Shown here in pieces: positions 1 through 6,185 of a stretch of DNA of 6,185 bases. Positions within the stretch are counted from its first letter, which is position 1; each line of letters starts with the position of its first letter. The notes under the pieces are model-generated. The model was given only the letters and a program-made list of their open reading frames with translations, searched no databases and was not told the origin of the DNA. The translations under genes were made by a program, and so were the position numbers. The stretch lies in IMG/VR virus record IMGVR_UViG_648276662_000013. One strand, written 5' to 3'. This DNA comes from a virus. Taxonomy: Duplodnaviria > Heunggongvirae > Uroviricota > Caudoviricetes.

Positions 1-1194
1 GAGCAGATGCGTAATCTTATTACAGCATTCCCAGAAGAGTTTGAGGAAGTCCGTAAAGGGATGAGTTATGTCGATGATGCTCAAAGGGATGATTATGGCA
101 ATCTGGCGCTCAAAGCACAGGTAGCCTCATCGCTTGGTCAGGGCGCATTTGGCAGGTTCATGATGGATAATGAGCAGGAGATGCGTCGTTTAGGTATCCC
201 TCCAGAAACTATTGCGGAAATGCAGGTTAATGACCCGCAGGGCTTCCAGCATTTCGCAGGTAATCTGGCGCTGTTTTCTCTCGGTCATGAGAAGTATTTC
301 GATATCAAAGATCAAATGGAAGGTCGGGATATTGAGCGTGGCAAGTTGGCAGAGACAATCCGCAGCAATCAGGCTGGCGAAGCACTTCAGGCGAGAGGGC
401 AGGATATTAGCCGAGCAAATGCGTTAACGTCAGCATATGCACCAACAGCAGCAATGCAGAATTACAATCAGTACGCGCAAATGTTAAAGGCGGATCCAGA
501 GGGGGCGGCGGCATTTGCGGCAGCGGCTGGAATTAATACAAACGCCAAAAAATTAATGAGTGTTAGAGAAAACGATGATGGCACTGTCACAAAATACTAC
601 ACAGACGGAAGTGAAGAGCAGGGAAAACTAAACCAGCCAATATCTGGAGATGGGTTTCGTCCAATAGCTTTGCCAACAGCCCAAAAGATCATGGAAAAGT
701 CGCCAGAAGGGGCTAAAAAAGCTGCTGGATTTGCATACAGGGTTAGGGATGCTCTTGATTCAATAGATACACTGAAAGACCAGCTTAGCCCACAGCGAGT
801 GGCGATCATTAATAATGCTTTGGGTAATGGGACGCTGGCTAACTTAACGCTCAGCCCAGCAGAGCAGCAATACGTTGTTAATGCTAATGACGCAATAATG
901 GCAATACTCCGTCAGGAAACAGGGGCATCTATCCTACCAGCTGAAATGTCCAAATATTATCAAATGTATTTCCCTCAGCCTGGTGATTCCACAAAAACCA
1001 TTGATACCAAGCGCCGGAAGATGGAAAACCAGTTCAATTCGCTGAAAGCTGCTTCTGGTCGAACTTATGATGCTTTGCGGGTTATTTCAGCAGTTGACAG
1101 AGGAACTGCTTCTTCGTCGCAGACATTGCCGCAATCTGAGCAGGTATCACAGCCAGCAGCCAGCAGTAACTTTTCTTCACTATGGGGTGATTAA
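1..1194 (+). CDS. 5'-partial hypothetical protein (at least 397 aa in window), hydrophilic with no TM segment and a Ser/Gln-rich C-terminal tail; candidate phage virion/internal (DNA-ejection-type) protein, product is inference only
   Basis: Open frame runs from base 1 with no in-frame stop before the first ATG at 7, so the gene probably starts upstream of the window. Stop TAA 1192-1194 overlaps the next ATG 1194-1196 (TAATG), indicating an operon with translational coupling. ORFs 212..427(+) and 597..809(-) inside it are short shadow ORFs. Confidence 0.8.
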   Translation, partial: EQMRNLITAFPEEFEEVRKGMSYVDDAQRDDYGNLALKAQVASSLGQGAFGRFMMDNEQEMRRLGIPPETIAEMQVNDPQGFQHFAGNLALFSLGHEKYFDIKDQMEGRDIERGKLAETIRSNQAGEALQARGQDISRANALTSAYAPTAAMQNYNQYAQMLKADPEGAAAFAAAAGINTNAKKLMSVRENDDGTVTKYYTDGSEEQGKLNQPISGDGFRPIALPTAQKIMEKSPEGAKKAAGFAYRVRDALDSIDTLKDQLSPQRVAIINNALGNGTLANLTLSPAEQQYVVNANDAIMAILRQETGASILPAEMSKYYQMYFPQPGDSTKTIDTKRRKMENQFNSLKAASGRTYDALRVISAVDRGTASSSQTLPQSEQVSQPAASSNFSSLWGD

Positions 1195-3299
1195 TGGCTA
1201 AAGCATGGAAAGATGTTATCGCCTCTCCACAGTATCAGGCGTTAGCACCAGAACAAAAAGCGCAGGCTCAGGAGCAATACTTCAATGAAGTCGTGGCCCC
1301 GCAAGCCGGAGAAAGTGTAGAGCAGGCTAAGCAGGCTTTTTATGCTGCCTATCCACTACCATCAACGAATGAAATAGACCGATCCCAATCAGCAACTCAA
1401 AATATTCAACATACATCATCTGATAATTCTCTTGCGTCAGGGTATGCAAAGTTAGCTACTCAGCAAAGAGAGGGGCTTGAGCGTTCAGCAGAACAGGGAG
1501 CCAGTCTTGGGGCTGCGATGCGCGATGCTATAACAGGCGAAAGCCGAATGACTCCAGAGATGGAGAGACTGCAAAATGTCGCCTCTGCCCCAGAATTGAA
1601 CTCACTAAGCATGGATGCCCTAAAGGCTGGATGGTCTCAACTTTTCGGCTCTGACGCGTCTCAGGAAAAGATTCTTCAGGGAATGGGGGCGACATTAAGG
1701 CAGGATGAGAAGGGGAATACTATCGTTTCTCTGCCATCAGGTGATTATGCCCTGAACAAGCCGGGTTTATCACCGCAAGACCTGACCTCGTTTCTTGCTA
1801 ATGCGTTGGCGTTTACACCAGCGGGCAGGGCTGGAACGGTGCTTGGTGCCATAGGAAAATCAGCAGCTACAGATTTAGCACTACAGGGAGCCACCAGCCT
1901 TGCTGGTGGAGAAGATATTGATCCGTTACAAACGGTAATTTCTGCTGGCATTGGTGGTATTGGTAAGGGGCTGGAAAATACAGCGAGTGCGGTTTCGAGG
2001 GCTGTTCGTGGTGATATGTCGCCTGAAGCAAAGGCTGCTGTCGACTTTGCATCGGAAAGAAATCTGCCGTTAATGACCAGTGACATGCTGAAAGATAAAA
2101 CCTTTATGCAGAGTCAGGCTCAGACATTAGGCGAAAGAGTTCCTTTTTTTGGAACCGGTAAGAATCGGCTGAATCAACAACAAGCACGAGAAAATTTAGT
2201 CAGAACATTTAGCGATGGTCTGGGTGGCATTTCTGATAAACAGCTTTATGAATCTGCGACTAAAGGGCAACAAAAATTCATTGAGGCAGCAGGAAAGCGA
2301 TATAACCGCATAATTGACGCTATGGGGGATACCCCTGTCGATCTCTCAAACACGGTAAAAGCTATCGACAATCAGATTGCCGTGTTAAGCCGCCCGGGCA
2401 AATCTCAGGATAGAGCCGCGGTAAAAGTCTTGCAGCAATTTAAAGACGATATCACCAGCGGACCAAATGACCTGCGTCTGGCGAGGGAAAACAGAACCGA
2501 TCTTCGAAAGCGATTTATGGCGTCATCTGACACTGTTGATAAAGATACGCTCCAGAAAGCCAGCGATATTATCTACAAGGCATATACGGCGGATATGAAA
2601 AAAGCCGTAGCCAAAAATCTTGGAGCAGACGAAGCCATTAATATGGCAAGGGTTGATCGCTCATGGTCTAAATTCAATGACATGATGGGAAGAACGCGCG
2701 TTCAAAAGGCAATAGCCAGCGGCAAGGCCACGCCTGAGGATGTAACAAAACTCGTTTTTAGCCAAAGCCCATCAGAACGTTCTCAGCTTTACAGGCTTCT
2801 GGATGACAATGGTAGGCAAAACGCACGAGCAGCCATAGTTCAGAATGCTGTAGATAAGGCGACTGATCCGTCTGGAAATATCAGTGTTGAGAAGTTTATT
2901 AATGCGTTACACCGGAACAGGAAGCAATCAGCAACTTTCTTTAAAGGCGTACATGGAAAGGAACTGGACGGCGTTATTAAATACCTCAACGATACAAGAC
3001 ACGCGGCAAAAGCGAACGTTCAAAACTTAAATGGTCAGCAGCTTTATGGATTGTTAGTTGGTGGTGGCATCATAAACGCAGCAGTATTAGCGGGGATGCT
3101 AAAAACGGCTGCGTTTGTTGTTCCTGCTGCTGGTGCCGTAGGCGGAGCAGCGAAGGCATACGAAAGCCCTGTTATACGAAATGCCTTGTTACGTCTGGCA
3201 AATACGCCAAAAGGTAGCACAGCATATGACAGAGCGATCAGTACGGTCACACAATCGCTCACCAGAGTCGCACAGGCATCACAAAAAGAATCTCAATAA
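1194..3299 (+). CDS. 701-aa hypothetical protein: Ala/Gln-rich N-terminus, Gly/Ala-rich middle, C-terminal ~37-residue hydrophobic helical hairpin; candidate membrane-inserting virion/ejection-type protein (function not established)
   Basis: 2.1 kb ORF whose ATG overlaps the upstream stop, with a G-rich SD-like GGGGTG at 1184-1189. Hairpin LYGLLVGGGIINAAVLAGML-KT-AAFVVPAAGAVGGAA is residues 617-653, about nt 3042-3152. Stop TAA 3297-3299 is followed by a hairpin + T-run. Antisense ORFs 1745..2086, 1867..2052 and 3044..3262 are shadows. Confidence 0.85.
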   Translation: MAKAWKDVIASPQYQALAPEQKAQAQEQYFNEVVAPQAGESVEQAKQAFYAAYPLPSTNEIDRSQSATQNIQHTSSDNSLASGYAKLATQQREGLERSAEQGASLGAAMRDAITGESRMTPEMERLQNVASAPELNSLSMDALKAGWSQLFGSDASQEKILQGMGATLRQDEKGNTIVSLPSGDYALNKPGLSPQDLTSFLANALAFTPAGRAGTVLGAIGKSAATDLALQGATSLAGGEDIDPLQTVISAGIGGIGKGLENTASAVSRAVRGDMSPEAKAAVDFASERNLPLMTSDMLKDKTFMQSQAQTLGERVPFFGTGKNRLNQQQARENLVRTFSDGLGGISDKQLYESATKGQQKFIEAAGKRYNRIIDAMGDTPVDLSNTVKAIDNQIAVLSRPGKSQDRAAVKVLQQFKDDITSGPNDLRLARENRTDLRKRFMASSDTVDKDTLQKASDIIYKAYTADMKKAVAKNLGADEAINMARVDRSWSKFNDMMGRTRVQKAIASGKATPEDVTKLVFSQSPSERSQLYRLLDDNGRQNARAAIVQNAVDKATDPSGNISVEKFINALHRNRKQSATFFKGVHGKELDGVIKYLNDTRHAAKANVQNLNGQQLYGLLVGGGIINAAVLAGMLKTAAFVVPAAGAVGGAAKAYESPVIRNALLRLANTPKGSTAYDRAISTVTQSLTRVAQASQKESQ

Positions 3300-3303
3300 C
3301 TGG

Positions 3304-3326
3304 TTAGCCATGGATGGCTAATTTTT
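3304..3326 (+). terminator. Candidate intrinsic terminator of the + strand two-gene operon
   Basis: Perfect inverted repeat TTAGCCAT-GG-ATGGCTAA (3304-3321) followed by TTTTT (3322-3326), starting 5 nt after the stop of the 701-aa gene. Stem is only moderately GC-rich; it overlaps the stop of the convergent minus-strand gene. Confidence 0.5.
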
Positions 3327-3668
3327 GTTCTTTGCTCTCATCCATAGGTAAAGAAGGGAAAGAACAAGACAAAAAACAGAGAATAGATAACCTACCTCAT
3401 ATGGTGCGCCAAAAAAATTAGCTATTGATACGGGCAAAAAAGCTGAAGCGATCAAAATTGAAAGGCAAAAAATAAGCCCAGTAATATAGTTTATTAAATT
3501 CTTAAATGAGAAACGTTTTGCTTGATTTACGGTCTTAACGAACGATCGCTTAACGACGGATAAAAGCAAATAGATGGCGACAGTTGCTAATGCCCCTTTC
3601 CACCAGTCTGGATATAGTTTTGCGACAATCAGACCAAGTAAAACCATGATGACAGCCTGAGCATTCAC
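3318..3668 (-). CDS. Small polytopic membrane protein (about 116 aa from the GTG start, 4 predicted TM helices); candidate superinfection-exclusion/immunity-type accessory protein
   Basis: ORF track gives 3318..3737 (139 aa) from an ATG with no SD. An in-frame GTG at 3666-3668 is preceded by GGGAGG (complement of 3675-3680) with a 6-nt spacer, so it is the more likely start. Four hydrophobic stretches: AQAVIMVLLGLIVAKLY, ALATVAIYLLLSVV, LINYITGLIFCLSILIASAFLPV, VGYLFSVFCLVLSLLYLWM. The 3' two-thirds (about 3320-3560) is visibly AT-rich versus flanks (not computed). A 420-nt stop-free frame in AT-rich DNA is unlikely by chance. Confidence 0.6.
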   Translation of the reverse strand: MNAQAVIMVLLGLIVAKLYPDWWKGALATVAIYLLLSVVKRSFVKTVNQAKRFSFKNLINYITGLIFCLSILIASAFLPVSIANFFGAPYEVGYLFSVFCLVLSLLYLWMRAKNKN

Positions 3669-3783
3669 ACCAACCCTCCCTTTAGCTTTGTTTAGAATGG
3701 CAATCATCATATATCCAAGACATGGCATTTGGTACATAGCTTGGGTCGGGATTTCAAATCCGCTCCCAGTTGATGGGGCCGTT

Positions 3784-3794
3784 ACAGTACGCGC
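3784..3794. repeat. Degenerate copy (core only) of the (CG)n-core motif: ACAGTACGCGC
   Basis: Matches the core of the 3854-3877 motif, same orientation. Confidence 0.35.
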
Positions 3795-3853
3795 ATATCC
3801 GCTTTATGTGAAACAGGAAGATTTTTCTGATATCACTGCCACAGCAAAACACC

Positions 3854-3877
3854 AATTTCGTGACCAGTACGCGCGCG
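3854..3877. repeat. Copy of a ~24-bp motif AATTTCGTGACCAGTACGCGCGCG (alternating purine-pyrimidine CG core)
   Basis: Near-identical to copies at 4141-4163 and 5772-5796. Lies in non-coding DNA. Confidence 0.7.
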
Positions 3878-3885
3878 AGGGGTAT

Positions 3886-3909
3886 CAGTTGCAAAATTTT
3901 TTGCAACTG
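3886..3909. promoter_or_regulatory. Perfect 24-bp palindrome CAGTTGCAAAA-TT-TTTTGCAACTG; candidate dimeric-protein operator or cruciform/hairpin
   Basis: 11-bp arms are exact reverse complements with a 2-bp centre. Sits exactly between motif copies at 3854-3877 and 3915-3930. No U-tract after the stem, so not a canonical terminator. Confidence 0.5.
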
Positions 3910-3914
3910 CGTCC

Positions 3915-3930
3915 GACCAGTACGCACACG
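3915..3930. repeat. Partial copy of the (CG)n-core motif: GACCAGTACGCACACG
   Basis: Core GACCAGTACGC identical to the 3863-3873 part of the full copy; about 52 bp downstream of it, same orientation. Confidence 0.5.
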
Positions 3931-4140
3931 ATGGCGGGGAGCACCATAAAACTGTTCTCTACATAAGACAGAGTGGTGGTGATGTGTTGATTATCGGCGT
4001 ATATGCGCACAGGACGCGCTATGACGATGTTTTATGCGGGTACACTAATCACATGTATCTGGTGTGATAAATCGCGTTACATGACCTCTCATGTTGTGCT
4101 GGTGGTTATCACGACTTTCTGAATCTGGCCTTTGCCTGAT

Positions 4141-4163
4141 ATTTTGCGACAAGTACGCGCGCG
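4141..4163. repeat. Copy of the ~24-bp motif: ATTTTGCGACAAGTACGCGCGCG
   Basis: AAGTACGCGCGCG core plus TTT-GCGAC 5' part, same orientation as other copies. Lies about 30 bp beyond the 3' end of the minus-strand 73-aa gene. Confidence 0.7.
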
Positions 4164-4191
4164 TAGCATCGACAGCATACACATTGGATAT

Positions 4192-4413
4192 TCATTTTGT
4201 GACCAATGCGATAAGTAGCGGGATAAGAATTGATAAAATCAACAGGACGATGATCCACTTTTGATTTTCACTGGCCTTATCTCTATTTTCATCAATCTTA
4301 TCAATAATTCGACGCTCCAAGCCGTGCATATCACCGCGAATGGCAATCATCTCATTGCGAACATCCGAGAAGTGGTTGGCTTGATGTTCAATGTGTGGCG
4401 TTCTGCCTTTCAT
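4192..4413 (-). CDS. 73-aa tail-anchored membrane protein (charged N-terminal ~50 residues, single C-terminal TM WIIVLLILSILIPLLIALV); XhlA-like by recall, or possibly a small holin/toxin-like membrane effector
   Basis: Strong SD GGTGAGGA (complement of about 4422-4429) 6-7 nt upstream of ATG (complement of 4411-4413). Lies 79 bp downstream of, and co-oriented with, the RHH gene. Coiled-coil N-terminus, conserved Trp before a single C-terminal TM resembles the XhlA family (Pfam PF10779) from memory; not verified. Confidence 0.7.
   Translation of the reverse strand: MKGRTPHIEHQANHFSDVRNEMIAIRGDMHGLERRIIDKIDENRDKASENQKWIIVLLILSILIPLLIALVTK
4194..4210. repeat. Degenerate copy of the motif 5' half: ATTTTGTGACCAATGCG
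   Basis: TTTTGTGACCA matches the 5' half of the full motif. About 53 bp downstream of the 4141 copy, mirroring the ~52-bp spacing of the 3854/3915 pair. Overlaps the stop codon of the 73-aa gene. Confidence 0.35.
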
Positions 4414-4492
4414 GCCTGATCCTCACCTATCGTCACCACCTGCTGGTGTATAAAGGTATTGGCCCAAGCAGCTTTCCAATGGGCACTCATGT

Positions 4493-4948
4493 TTATACGC
4501 TGACCTTACAATCAATCACCGCTTTTAACTTTTCAGCATTGCTTCCCTGACGCTTCCACGCGCTGTAAATATCTTTATCCCACGCTTTACCAGCTTTTGT
4601 TTGATAGCCTGCTTCATTGATCCGTTCAGCTATCACACGCCCATTATCAAATCCCTGTTGGATGGTATCGGCAATGATCTTTATAACTGCCGTTTCGTTA
4701 TATGGCTTTGGTGGGATGTTCGGCTTTCCGGCAATAAGCGACGCAGCGGCTTTTTCCATGCGCTCCACCAGCCCAAGCATTCGTGAATCAATAGACTTTT
4801 CCGGCTGTCCCAGCTTCATGCGAATCGCATCAACAAGCCAGGAGGTTTTATCCCCTCCAGAAGCGAGAACAGACCGATTAAACTCATCCTGCAATTCAGA
4901 TGGGATGCGGAACGCGACCAGATTAGATTTGCTCATTGCAAAGACCAT
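4493..4948 (-). CDS. Ribbon-helix-helix (CopG/Arc/MetJ-type) DNA-binding protein with an uncharacterised ~100-aa C-terminal domain; candidate repressor/regulator of the divergent control region
   Basis: N-terminal NLVAFRIPSELQDEFNRSVLASGGDKTSWLVDAIRMKL fits the RHH pattern (beta-strand with alternating hydrophobics, helix A, G-x-T/S turn, helix B). Neither ATG (complement of 4946-4948 or 4934-4936) has a clear SD, so the start is uncertain and could be leaderless. Opposite-strand ORFs 4601..4786 and 4617..5021 are Ser/Cys-rich shadows. Confidence 0.75.
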   Translation of the reverse strand: MVFAMSKSNLVAFRIPSELQDEFNRSVLASGGDKTSWLVDAIRMKLGQPEKSIDSRMLGLVERMEKAAASLIAGKPNIPPKPYNETAVIKIIADTIQQGFDNGRVIAERINEAGYQTKAGKAWDKDIYSAWKRQGSNAEKLKAVIDCKVSV

Positions 4949-4963
4949 ATCAGTGAGTAATAT

Positions 4964-4998
4964 CCATACAGTATACCACTGTATAACACTGTTATACG
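4964..4998. promoter_or_regulatory. Operator-like decamer repeats/palindrome in the divergent promoter region
   Basis: ATACAGT-ATACC-ACTGTAT inverted repeat (4966-4984) plus tandem related decamers CACTGTATAA / CACTGTTATAC (4977-4997), immediately upstream (minus strand) of the RHH gene start. Confidence 0.5.
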
Positions 4999-5050: not shown

Positions 5051-5101
5051 GTTGGTTCAGAGCTGGGCTGTGTTGGTTCAAAATGAGTTGATGTTGGTTC
5101 A
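5051..5101. repeat. Three direct copies of 9-mer GTTGGTTCA at exact 21-bp phasing (iteron-like)
   Basis: Copies at 5051-5059, 5072-5080 and 5093-5101, each preceded by TGTT/GTGTT. The 21-bp spacing is two helical turns. Confidence 0.75.
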
Positions 5102-5144
5102 ATATTTTAGAAAAAACACAATAAAAACAACGCTCTTTACAAAT

Positions 5145-5171
5145 TGAACCAACTGAACCAACTGAACCAAC
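5145..5171. repeat. Three head-to-tail tandem copies of TGAACCAAC, the reverse complement of the 5051-5101 iteron
   Basis: TGAACCAAC x3 at 5145-5153, 5154-5162 and 5163-5171. Separated from the direct copies by a 43-bp AT-rich spacer (5102-5144). Overlaps the -35 region of the rightward gene. Confidence 0.75.
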
Positions 5172-5188
5172 ACCTTTTTGCTTATCTA

Positions 5189-5202
5189 TATAATCTGAGA
5201 GG
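5189..5202 (+). promoter_or_regulatory. Candidate -10 hexamer (TATAAT 5189-5194) and SD (GAGAGG 5197-5202) for the rightward gene
   Basis: Consensus TATAAT, but no good -35 at 17-bp spacing (that position is iteron sequence), suggesting factor dependence. SD is 5 nt before ATG 5208. Assignment is tentative because -10 and SD are almost contiguous. Confidence 0.4.
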
Positions 5203-5207
5203 CAGAA

Positions 5208-5495
5208 ATGATAAGGGACAGGAAAGCTGAAGAGCTGGAGTCAAAAGGGCTATACCGGAGAGCTGCCGCACGATGGGCAGAAGTCATGATGCTGGCAGAT
5301 GGCGATAAAGAACGTGAACATGCAGCAAAAAGACGCTCTGAATGTATCCGTAAGGCGGCACGCCCACCAGCAACTACAGACAGATTCGGAGATTTAAGAC
5401 AGGCAGTTAAGCGGACTCATTCGGCTCTTGGTATGGATGAGGAAGCGAGAGGGTACTTCAGGCGTTATCGCGATAAAGATTGCCAGAGACAGTAA
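5208..5495 (+). CDS. 95-aa basic, helix-rich small regulator; PerC/Pch-family-like transcriptional activator (by recall, unverified)
   Basis: ATG with good SD. N-terminal KAEELESKGLYRRAAARWAEVM resembles, from memory, the conserved core of PerC-family activators (Pfam PF06069). Divergently arranged from the RHH gene across a repeat-rich control region. Confidence 0.7.
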   Translation: MIRDRKAEELESKGLYRRAAARWAEVMMLADGDKEREHAAKRRSECIRKAARPPATTDRFGDLRQAVKRTHSALGMDEEARGYFRRYRDKDCQRQ

Positions 5496-5771: not shown

Positions 5772-5796
5772 AATTTCACGAGCAATACGCGCGCGC
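5772..5796. repeat. Remote copy of the ~24-bp (CG)n-core motif: AATTTCACGAGCAATACGCGCGCGC
   Basis: Same orientation and same AATTTC-N-GA-N-CAATACGCGCGCG architecture as the copy at 3854-3877, about 1.9 kb away in another non-coding stretch. Preceded by hairpin CACATG-GCTGTTT-CATGTG (5714-5732) and a T6 run (5743-5748). Confidence 0.65.
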
Positions 5797-5880
5797 AGGA
5801 CAACAAGCCTGAACATGGTTACACACCTCGATCGTGAGGGATGTAGACAATGGCTTCTGGCCAAAGCACCCGAAAAAACC

Positions 5881-5902
5881 GTGTACATAAGGGTGTACAT
5901 AA
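5881..5902. repeat. Tandem direct repeat GTGTACATAA-GG-GTGTACATAA
   Basis: Two exact 10-bp copies separated by GG, each containing the palindrome TGTACA, in non-coding DNA. Confidence 0.5.
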
Positions 5903-6020
5903 TCAAAAACCGCATTAGAAATAAACCAGCTACAATGCGGCATTGAAGCCAATACTCTACAAACAGATTCAGAACATTGAATAACTCGTAACGCCAATTC
6001 TTACTTTTCAGCCTTCACAA

Positions 6021-6052: not shown

Positions 6053-6185
6053 TTCCCCGCAACTTCAATTCTGTTTTGCGTGCCTGCTCCAGATTTTGCG
6101 ATGTTTTTTTGCCCAGCACACTGAGAACGTGAGATACTCACAACTGTATATAAATGGGTCTTCCCCGATCATGGTGGGAAGACTC

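Follow-up and report, generated by a model that had tools for sequence, protein, structure and literature searches.

A PerC/Pch-family gene beside a putative second copy of the replication origin in an EcCIMP1-like phage satellite

Does the small open reading frame at 5208-5495 of this viral DNA encode an activator of virulence genes, and is the repeat array in front of it the operator of a regulatory switch? We followed both questions through the whole stretch of 6,185 nt from a Caudoviricetes record (IMGVR_UViG_648276662_000013), hereafter the window. The gene is placed as follows.

5208-5495, plus strand: perC-family gene, 95 aa, called from an ATG-to-TAA open reading frame, a PF06069 match and the RefSeq name

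The open reading frame listing of the window gives 95 codons, from ATG to TAA, at exactly these coordinates. The encoded protein matches the Pfam PerC profile (PF06069) with an E-value of 2.5e-33 and 114.7 bits against a cutoff of 22.6, and the alignment runs end to end, with residues 1-89 covering profile positions 1-89 of 90; the profile search that the earlier note had suggested for its PerC/Pch assignment is thus strongly positive. The protein also matches phrog_994 (E 2.8e-37) and several further PHROGs labelled 'transcriptional activator', and almost all of the 105 homologues found in a database search carry PF06069. Invariant in an alignment of 28 sequences are D4, K6-A7-E8, L10-E11, G14, Y16-R17-R18-A19, R22-W23, V26 and C46; in a smaller alignment, which includes EPEC PerC, PchA and EcCIMP1_025, these are D4, A7, L10-E11, K13-G14, Y16-A20 (Y16-R17-R18-A19-A20), R22-W23 and C46. 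Both this N-terminal core and the size of 95 aa fit the PerC/Pch family (about 90-105 aa).

An AlphaFold2 model built on 28 homologues is all-helical (H5-13, H16-29, H33-51, H57-73 and H79-88), with a pLDDT of about 90 for residues 1-50 and lower confidence for the last two helices. A fold search of the PDB with this model returned generic helical hairpins only and no match with E < 1, and a sequence search of solved structures found no member of the PerC family. As the profile match is present and the predicted fold is helical, which the earlier note had expected of a PerC-like protein, the family assignment stands: the open reading frame is a bona fide PerC/Pch-family member, a small, all-helical, non-enzymatic regulator of about 90 aa. 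The RefSeq name at the same locus is already 'PerC family transcriptional regulator', and of 5426 complete E. coli genomes, 983 match a 651-nt query around perC, and in 291 the match spans 80% or more of the query. Gene, family and carrier type are already known, and the gene call adds nothing new.

The surroundings of perC identify the carrier. Apart from the elements discussed further below, the window contains these features.

1..1194, plus strand: 3' part of a P22 gp20-like DNA ejection protein gene whose start lies left of the window (Inj_translocase, E 1.7e-38; phrog_917, E 9.7e-85; the RefSeq homologue in L002, 'phage DNA ejection protein', has 1467 nt)
1194..3299, plus strand: P22 gp16-like DNA transfer/injection gene (phrog_770 'DNA transfer protein', E 2.5e-163; RefSeq 'injection protein' in L001)
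3318..3737, minus strand: predicted membrane protein gene, an open reading frame at the position of sieA in the P22 map
4192..4413, minus strand: gene for a 73-aa protein with a C-terminal hydrophobic helix (phrog_6324, E 1.4e-10; RefSeq hypothetical)
5882..5901, plus strand: two TGTACATA repeats in the right arm, candidate recombinase arm sites, which recur beside the integrase gene at the left end of L002
5964..5984, plus strand: attR core, a 21-nt duplicate of the yicC end (CAGATTCAGAACATTGAATAA), from comparison with K-12 yicC-dinD and L002
5985..6155, plus strand: chromosomal DNA of the yicC-dinD spacer, ending halfway through the dinD LexA box and collinear with the first 171 nt of the K-12 intergenic region
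6156..6185, no strand assigned: end of an ISL3-family insertion sequence, which interrupts the dinD LexA box (exact matches under ISEc53/ISKox3 transposase features)

The carrier is a phage satellite, an EcCIMP1-like PICI of ~17 kb in the 3' end of yicC, beside dinD; what the earlier note had called a 'phage accessory region' has the gene set of a satellite and is inserted at the yicC 3' end. The window holds the right third of the element, and the full order was read from the near-identical loci L001 and L002, the latter 98.9% identical over 99% of the window: tyrosine integrase, small AlpA-type HTH protein, AntA/AntB, DUF4222, Ash, Icd-like protein, primase, two P22-like ejection genes, three small minus-strand genes and then perC, the last gene before attR. 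Gene set and order in both loci match those of EcCIMP1 (L003), and capsid, tail and lysis genes are missing from them. The island ends at 5984, where 5964-5984 duplicates the last 21 nt of yicC, and K-12 has the empty site; in a 12-kb circular record of a sibling element, perC lies just upstream of int. Divergence from the K-12 sequence begins at 6156, and the insertion sequence end that follows lies outside the satellite.

EcCIMP1 of E. coli MP1, described by Pick, Stadel and Raivio (ISME J 2025; PMC11773190), has been shown to depend on the P22-like helper Kapi1 for its excision, circularisation and transduction (PMC11773190). The island in the window is most likely a satellite of P22-like phages of this EcCIMP1 type, and PerC genes are recognised cargo of Gram-negative PICIs. 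For the membrane protein encoded at 3318..3737, neither a family match in Pfam, PHROGs or PADLOC nor sequence similarity to P22 SieA was found, and PADLOC gave no match for the accessory proteins.

Between the minus-strand genes and perC lies an array of iterons in three parts.

5051..5101, plus strand: left arm, three GTTGGTTCA iterons at 21-nt spacing, starting at 5051, 5072 and 5093 (exact matches)
5102..5144, no strand assigned: A+T-rich core of 43 nt, 79% A+T
5145..5171, minus strand: right arm, three tandem 9-nt iterons (TGAACCAAC three times on the plus strand), starting at 5145, 5154 and 5163 (exact matches)

That an iteron array precedes perC, as previously remarked, is borne out by the six exact GTTGGTTCA repeats; with one mismatch allowed, 9 matches are found against 1.46 expected, and 0/200 shuffles reach 9. 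The use that the earlier note made of the array, as part of a regulated switch together with the RHH protein, agrees poorly with its distribution, since siblings carry it beside the primase gene and some elements have it but lack the RHH gene or perC. In L001, L003 (EcCIMP1), L004 and L021, the stop codon of the TOPRIM-DUF927 primase gene is followed after 26-30 nt by the complete array in inverted orientation, and across the aligned copies the iterons are 100% conserved, whereas the spacers between them diverge. In EcCIMP1 both arrays are present and tblastn detects no RHH homologue, and Salmonella islands carry the array without perC. Among 5426 complete E. coli genomes, 547 contain it, at a median of 2 places per genome.

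The origin of a Gram-negative PICI consists of two iteron sets flanking an A+T-rich core (PMC6092414), and plasmid maintenance by such an origin with its cognate Rep was assayed for EcCICFT073 (PMC6092414). The window array has this architecture, with three plus three GTTGGTTCA iterons around the 43-nt core. It is located about 6 kb from the primase gene, away from the canonical place of the origin directly 3' of pri-rep, and in DUF927-type siblings the place 3' of the primase is held by the inverted duplicate. In L002 and L019, which among full-length elements are nearest to the window, the primase has another C-terminal helicase half (DUF5906 type), other iterons, ACCTRTACCA, follow it, and the GTTGGTTCA array is found on the perC side only, so that the perC-side array there would lack a cognate initiator in cis; array number and helicase type were compared in six elements. 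In the perC-side copies sampled (L019 was outside the individual check), all six iterons are exact, with the exception of L014, where a deletion has removed most of the array and the -10 region and has left the perC open reading frame intact. Exact iterons amid diverged spacers and flanks, including those of Salmonella, argue for selection on the repeats. Taking together the primase-side duplicates, the PICI origin architecture and the occurrence without the RHH gene and without perC, the array is best read as an origin-type module, which would be a second, inverted copy of the satellite replication origin and not the operator of an RHH/PerC switch. Derivation of the array from a helper-phage origin was considered and rejected after a search of a phage collection, in which one weak match to a Klebsiella phage was the only result.

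Which protein, then, would act on the DNA between the two divergent genes? The gene facing away from perC and the sites next to it are the following.

4493..4936, minus strand: gene for a putative ribbon-helix-helix (RHH) DNA-binding protein, 147 aa, starting at MSKSN (structure model, weak fold matches)
4967..4997, no strand assigned: candidate operator of the RHH protein, consisting of the overlapping palindromes TACAGTATACCACTGTA and GTATAACACTGTTATAC immediately upstream of its gene

The start of the product was set at MSKSN as in RefSeq and in most homologues, of which there are 369 across Enterobacterales; one carries the name 'Arc-like DNA binding domain protein'. A Pfam scan matched neither the 147-aa protein nor its N-terminal 55 residues alone. 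The structure model combines an extended N-terminus and helices 13-26 and 30-42 with a well-modelled C-terminal helical domain, and its best fold matches, Arc, CopG, TacA, AtaR and NikA, reach a TM-score of about 0.6 over about 43 residues and are non-significant (E > 1); a sequence search of solved structures gave no relevant entry. Judged by the model, an RHH protein is plausible. Of the divergent RHH regulator described before, the divergent orientation is confirmed, while the RHH class is plausible but not proven.

The palindromes at 4967-4997 are conserved between the E. coli and Salmonella islands amid diverged flanks, and their position and conservation make them the better candidate for an RHH operator than the iterons. 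That the RHH gene has separate conserved palindromes of its own also speaks against the switch. As a binder of the iterons the RHH protein was rejected, since both arrays of EcCIMP1 are perfect although a homologue of this protein is absent there. Repeats of ACTGTATA upstream of the RHH gene were tried as a LexA box and discarded, as their half-sites have the wrong order and spacing for CTGT-N8-ACAG.

A second repeated element had been linked to PerC function, namely a dispersed (CG)n motif that might mark its target genes. The motif occurs in a conserved block at 3740-4170 and at a site downstream of perC.

3740..4170, no strand assigned: conserved, apparently non-coding block, common to EcCIMP1 (sequence comparison)
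3817-3838, within this block: P22-pac-like 22-mer
3862-3881 and 4148-4167, plus strand: copies of the (CG)n motif in the block (motif search)
3886-3909, within the block: 11-bp perfect palindrome
3915-3934, within the block: degenerate copy of the (CG)n motif
5780..5799, plus strand: third copy of the (CG)n motif (GAGCAATACGCGCGCGCAGG), downstream of perC

The form [AC]A[AG]TACGCGCGCG occurs at 3865, 4151 and 5783, always on the plus strand. The dispersed motif is real, with 5 matches to TACGCGCGCG against 0.18 expected and none of 200 shuffles reaching 5, but no feature of it points to PerC, and it brackets variable cassettes. In 21 loci compared, the motif is confined to these satellites, at 1-3 copies each, and the blocks it brackets vary among siblings, containing Abi, ImmA/IrrE or a Doc-type toxin-antitoxin pair. 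From this arrangement the motif looks like a set of module boundaries in a cargo/defence hotspot. Rfam and tRNA scans of the window, aimed at the block 3740-4170, gave no match, and the pac-like site at 3817 shares 16 of 22 positions with P22 pac, a score equalled by 20 of 300 shuffles, and is a lead only.

The few nucleotides between the last iteron and the start codon hold the putative promoter of perC.

5189..5201, plus strand: -10 hexamer TATAAT (5189-5194) followed by the ribosome-binding site GAGAGG (5196-5201), read from the sequence

TATAAT is the consensus -10 hexamer, there is no recognisable -35 element, and a promoter scan that requires both hexamers did not call a perC promoter; GAGAGG lies 6-12 nt upstream of the perC ATG. 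The -10 hexamer sits 18 nt past the last tandem iteron, which itself covers the -35 position, and the sequence of the -10 region is identical in all perC-side copies sampled. These elements suggest that perC has a promoter of its own, directly abutting the three tandem iterons.

Whether the protein activates or silences is a separate question. The window PerC is 55% identical to PchE, 54% to EcCIMP1_025, 52-53% to PchA over 88 residues, 44% to EPEC PerC over the full length and 30% to PchD. The value for EcCIMP1_025 is inflated by recombination: the gene is a mosaic whose DNA is 100% identical to EcCIMP1 at about 5125-5274, a block that extends from the array's right half across the promoter to codon 22, and 45-65% identical thereafter, with a breakpoint near codon 23. 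Beyond residue 23 (residues 24-88), the window PerC is 48% identical to PchA and PchE and 38% to EcCIMP1_025.

The behaviour of these relatives differs. LEE1 is activated by PerC and by Pch proteins, of which PchA/B/C are prophage-borne in EHEC O157:H7 (PMC4764244); Pch relieves silencing by H-NS/StpA/Hha and lowers H-NS occupancy at LEE1, and a strict upstream sequence is considered dispensable for regulators of the Pch type (PMC4764244). EcCIMP1_025, the only tested homologue from the EcCIMP1-like satellite type, silences a LEE1-lux reporter dose-dependently in C. rodentium (PMC11773190), and, according to the same paper, LEE1 did not respond to the PerC-like gene of either EcCIEDL933 or EcCICFT073 (PMC11773190). 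PchE is reported to repress curli and flagella (PMC7369912). Given near-equal identities to the activator PchA, the silencer EcCIMP1_025 and PchE, and given that behaviour differs within the family, an activator or silencer role of this allele cannot be inferred from sequence; it depends on allele and target. The word 'activator' in the previous description is therefore not sustained, as a 54% identical homologue silences LEE1 and other PICI PerC-like genes are inert there, and labelling this allele a virulence activator in annotation pipelines is unsafe.

Combining these observations, we consider it likely that a PerC/Pch regulator on an EcCIMP1-type PICI is transcribed from a promoter abutting the iterons of an inverted origin copy and acts in trans on H-NS-silenced promoters. 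According to this model, the TOPRIM-DUF927 primase-helicase, and not the neighbouring RHH protein, would bind the array, and perC would be transcribed from its own promoter next to the tandem iterons, so that its transcription may be coupled to binding of the replication initiator. By analogy with Pch, PerC would act in trans on promoters under H-NS-type silencing by remodelling the nucleoprotein complex, and, depending on allele and target, the outcome could resemble the activation seen for PchA and PerC or the silencing seen for EcCIMP1_025.

Two other readings concern what the protein does. In one, it is a PerC/Pch-type activator of LEE-like virulence genes, itself controlled by a switch that the iteron array would form together with the divergent RHH repressor. 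Its identity to PchA (52%) and to EPEC PerC (44%, full length) is in line with this, as are residues 24-88, which are nearer to PchA than to the silencing homologue, and O26 and O111 strains are among the carriers; many carriers, however, come from urinary, canine, avian and other sources and have no reported LEE pathotype, and, against activation, the homologue from the same satellite type silences LEE1 and the other PICI PerC-like genes are reported to be inert there. For the switch itself speak the RHH-array-perC trio, conserved in the 8 E. coli loci sampled, and a gene order that mirrors P22 mnt / arc-ant, in which an RHH repressor controls a divergent promoter. Yet EcCIMP1 has the array but no RHH gene, Salmonella islands have it but no perC, a duplicate lies at the primase gene, and a separate pair of conserved palindromes at 4967-4997 accompanies the RHH gene, all of which renders this reading quite improbable. 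The opposite direction, proposed for EcCIMP1_025 by Pick et al. (PMC11773190), is that of an ANR-type (AraC negative regulator, Aar-like) anti-activator, which would bind AraC-family activators and/or H-NS and so repress virulence regulons. Residues 5-52 of the window PerC do match NCBIfam ANR_neg_reg (NF033650) with 24.4 bits (E 1.9e-5), a score between those of EcCIMP1_025 (31.1) and of EPEC PerC (18.2) and PchA (13.6), and LEE1 silencing by EcCIMP1_025 would fit. This score, however, lies below the model cutoff of 32 bits for membership, and every PerC-family protein tested gives such a weak match, which therefore reflects shared ancestry of the N-terminal helices and assigns no subfamily. 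As the PerC model covers the whole 89 residues at 114.7 bits and the 54 positions of the ANR profile leave the conserved C-terminal half of the protein outside, we hold an ANR-type role of the window PerC to be unlikely.

The remaining alternatives concern the array. It might be a non-functional relic of modular recombination, with perC as constitutive cargo unlinked to satellite replication: the array persists in DUF5906-type elements, which lack a cognate DUF927 helicase, L014 has largely deleted it, and perC is a mosaic with its breakpoint near codon 23. Since the iterons are exact in the sampled perC-side copies (L014 excepted), including those of Salmonella with diverged spacers and flanks, we view a mere relic with doubt. 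A more far-reaching proposal takes the array as fully functional. Two inverted, complete origin modules, about 2-6 kb apart, would bracket the segment of ejection genes and defence cassettes, like P4 ori/crr, with the perC promoter in the distal copy; binding of DUF927 after helper induction would couple expression or shut-off of perC to replication, and PerC would serve the life cycle of satellite or helper instead of virulence, for instance through relief of H-NS silencing at genes of either element. We put this forward only tentatively, as a possibility of low probability. Our preferred reading remains that of a PerC/Pch regulator acting in trans from a promoter that adjoins an inverted origin copy. 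The gene is an ordinary, known one, and its duplicated-origin context is modestly interesting; a description of a duplicated, inverted origin-type array with the perC promoter on one copy was not found in the cited literature. If confirmed, the origin-attached promoter would offer a simple route from satellite induction to a nucleoid-level regulator, on an island carried by roughly 10% of complete E. coli genomes.

Comparison with known systems places the locus between several of them. PchA/B/C belong to the same Pfam family and have a similar C-terminal half (QAVxRxHSxLGM...FRRY), with the 52-53% identity noted above for PchA; PchA differs in being encoded on the lambda-like prophage Sp4 beside lysis genes, with neither satellite nor iterons adjoining, and in its length of 104 aa with a longer tail. 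EPEC PerC (BfpW), the founding member, encoded on the EAF plasmid, has the invariant core in common with the window protein at 44% identity, but its gene is plasmid-borne, the third of the perABC operon and under PerA control. Closest in context is EcCIMP1_025, which, as the last regulator gene, occupies the same position in the same satellite type, downstream of the same iteron array and promoter, and like the window PerC has a sub-threshold ANR match; what sets it apart is the 38% identity beyond residue 23. The elements themselves also differ, as EcCIMP1 is integrated at a tRNA-Thr gene next to proA instead of the yicC 3' end and carries alpA_1 and a small open reading frame where the window element has the RHH gene.

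PchE, at 55% identity, is encoded on the Sakai Sp7 island, which has integrase, primase, capsid and terminase genes and which, from this gene content, looks like a capsid-forming PICI. On this satellite-like island, pchE is transcribed away from an iteron-rich region after the primase, where tandem and 21-nt-spaced iterons are followed by a TATATA stretch and the operon that includes pchE; as in the window, the region ends in tandem 9-nt repeats, here together with the TATATA stretch. The iteron sequence is a different one (TGCGGGTTA), and pchE is the third gene of its operon.

Two phages complete the comparison. The window order of ejection genes, membrane protein gene, small gene, minus-strand RHH gene and divergent gene resembles 20-16-sieA-orf59a-mnt / arc-ant of P22. 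The closest precedent for the arrays in a satellite is ori/crr of phage P4, where the alpha primase-helicase binds two clusters of iterons. PMC6092414 names P4 alpha together with its cognate site. In both cases, two clusters of the same iteron lie several kb apart in a satellite that has a primase-helicase fusion; in contrast to P4, EcCIMP1-type elements are without sid, psu and delta genes, and the clusters considered here, as known from sequence, are near-identical inverted copies of a complete origin-type module.

The satellite primases (near-identical sibling loci L002, 11843-11946 and 12953-13056, and L001, 167-2923) share an N-terminal zinc-finger/TOPRIM half that is 83% identical, but their C-terminal halves are unrelated and belong to either DUF927 or DUF5906. 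Distinct iterons lie after each primase type, GTTGGTTCA for DUF927 and ACCTRTACCA for DUF5906, a clear-cut example of modules swapped between helicase and origin pairs.

Two further siblings are L014 and L004. In L014 (6365-6415), a deletion fuses the second iteron directly to the ribosome-binding region of perC; gone are the tandem iterons with the A+T core before them, and the -10 hexamer for the most part, and the perC open reading frame is intact. The other, L004 (NZ_CP148430.1, whole record), is an EcCIMP1-like satellite of 12,152 bp deposited as a circular plasmid. It is devoid of ejection genes and its perC adjoins int; the record may represent the excised circular form of the satellite, caught by assembly.

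Among the 21 loci fetched, the (CG)n-core motif occurs in EcCIMP1-like satellites only, and all its copies in the window lie on the plus strand. The segments bracketed by the motif differ in genes between siblings (Abi, ImmA/IrrE, Doc toxin-antitoxin), and it may mark the module boundaries of a cargo/defence hotspot. The motif copies and a palindrome are as follows:

3862-3881, plus strand, (CG)n-core motif
3886-3909, perfect 11-bp palindrome CAGTTGCAAAA/TTTTGCAACTG, inside the block 3740-4170
3915-3934, plus strand, degenerate (CG)n-core motif
4148-4167, plus strand, (CG)n-core motif
5780-5799, plus strand, (CG)n-core motif

The block at 3740-4170, about 430 nt, is conserved between the window element and EcCIMP1; it shows no tRNA, no match to an Rfam family and no gene that convinces. 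Compared with the annotated P22 pac, GAAGATTTATCTGAAGTCGTTA, the 22-mer GAAGATTTTTCTGATATCACTG at 3817-3838 has 16 of its 22 bases in common, 13 of them within the first 14, and is kept in L001 and EcCIMP1. Because 20 of 300 shuffles also attain 16/22, the resemblance provides only a lead towards a putative satellite packaging site.

In its final 30 nt (6156-6185) the window runs into one end of an insertion sequence of the ISL3 family (ISEc53/ISKox3). This element interrupts the dinD LexA box; K-12 has AACTGTATATAAATACAGTT here, and the window departs from it past ...TATAAAT. SOS control of dinD may be altered by the insertion. A 96-nt query across the junction is matched over 80% or more of its length in 61 complete E. 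coli genomes.

In window 1-3299 the satellite encodes proteins homologous to gp20 and gp16, the ejection proteins of P22, and the minus-strand genes that come after them (3318-4936) are laid out as in the sieA-mnt region of P22. Together, these homologues and the shared layout suggest that the satellite captured part of a P22-like helper genome.
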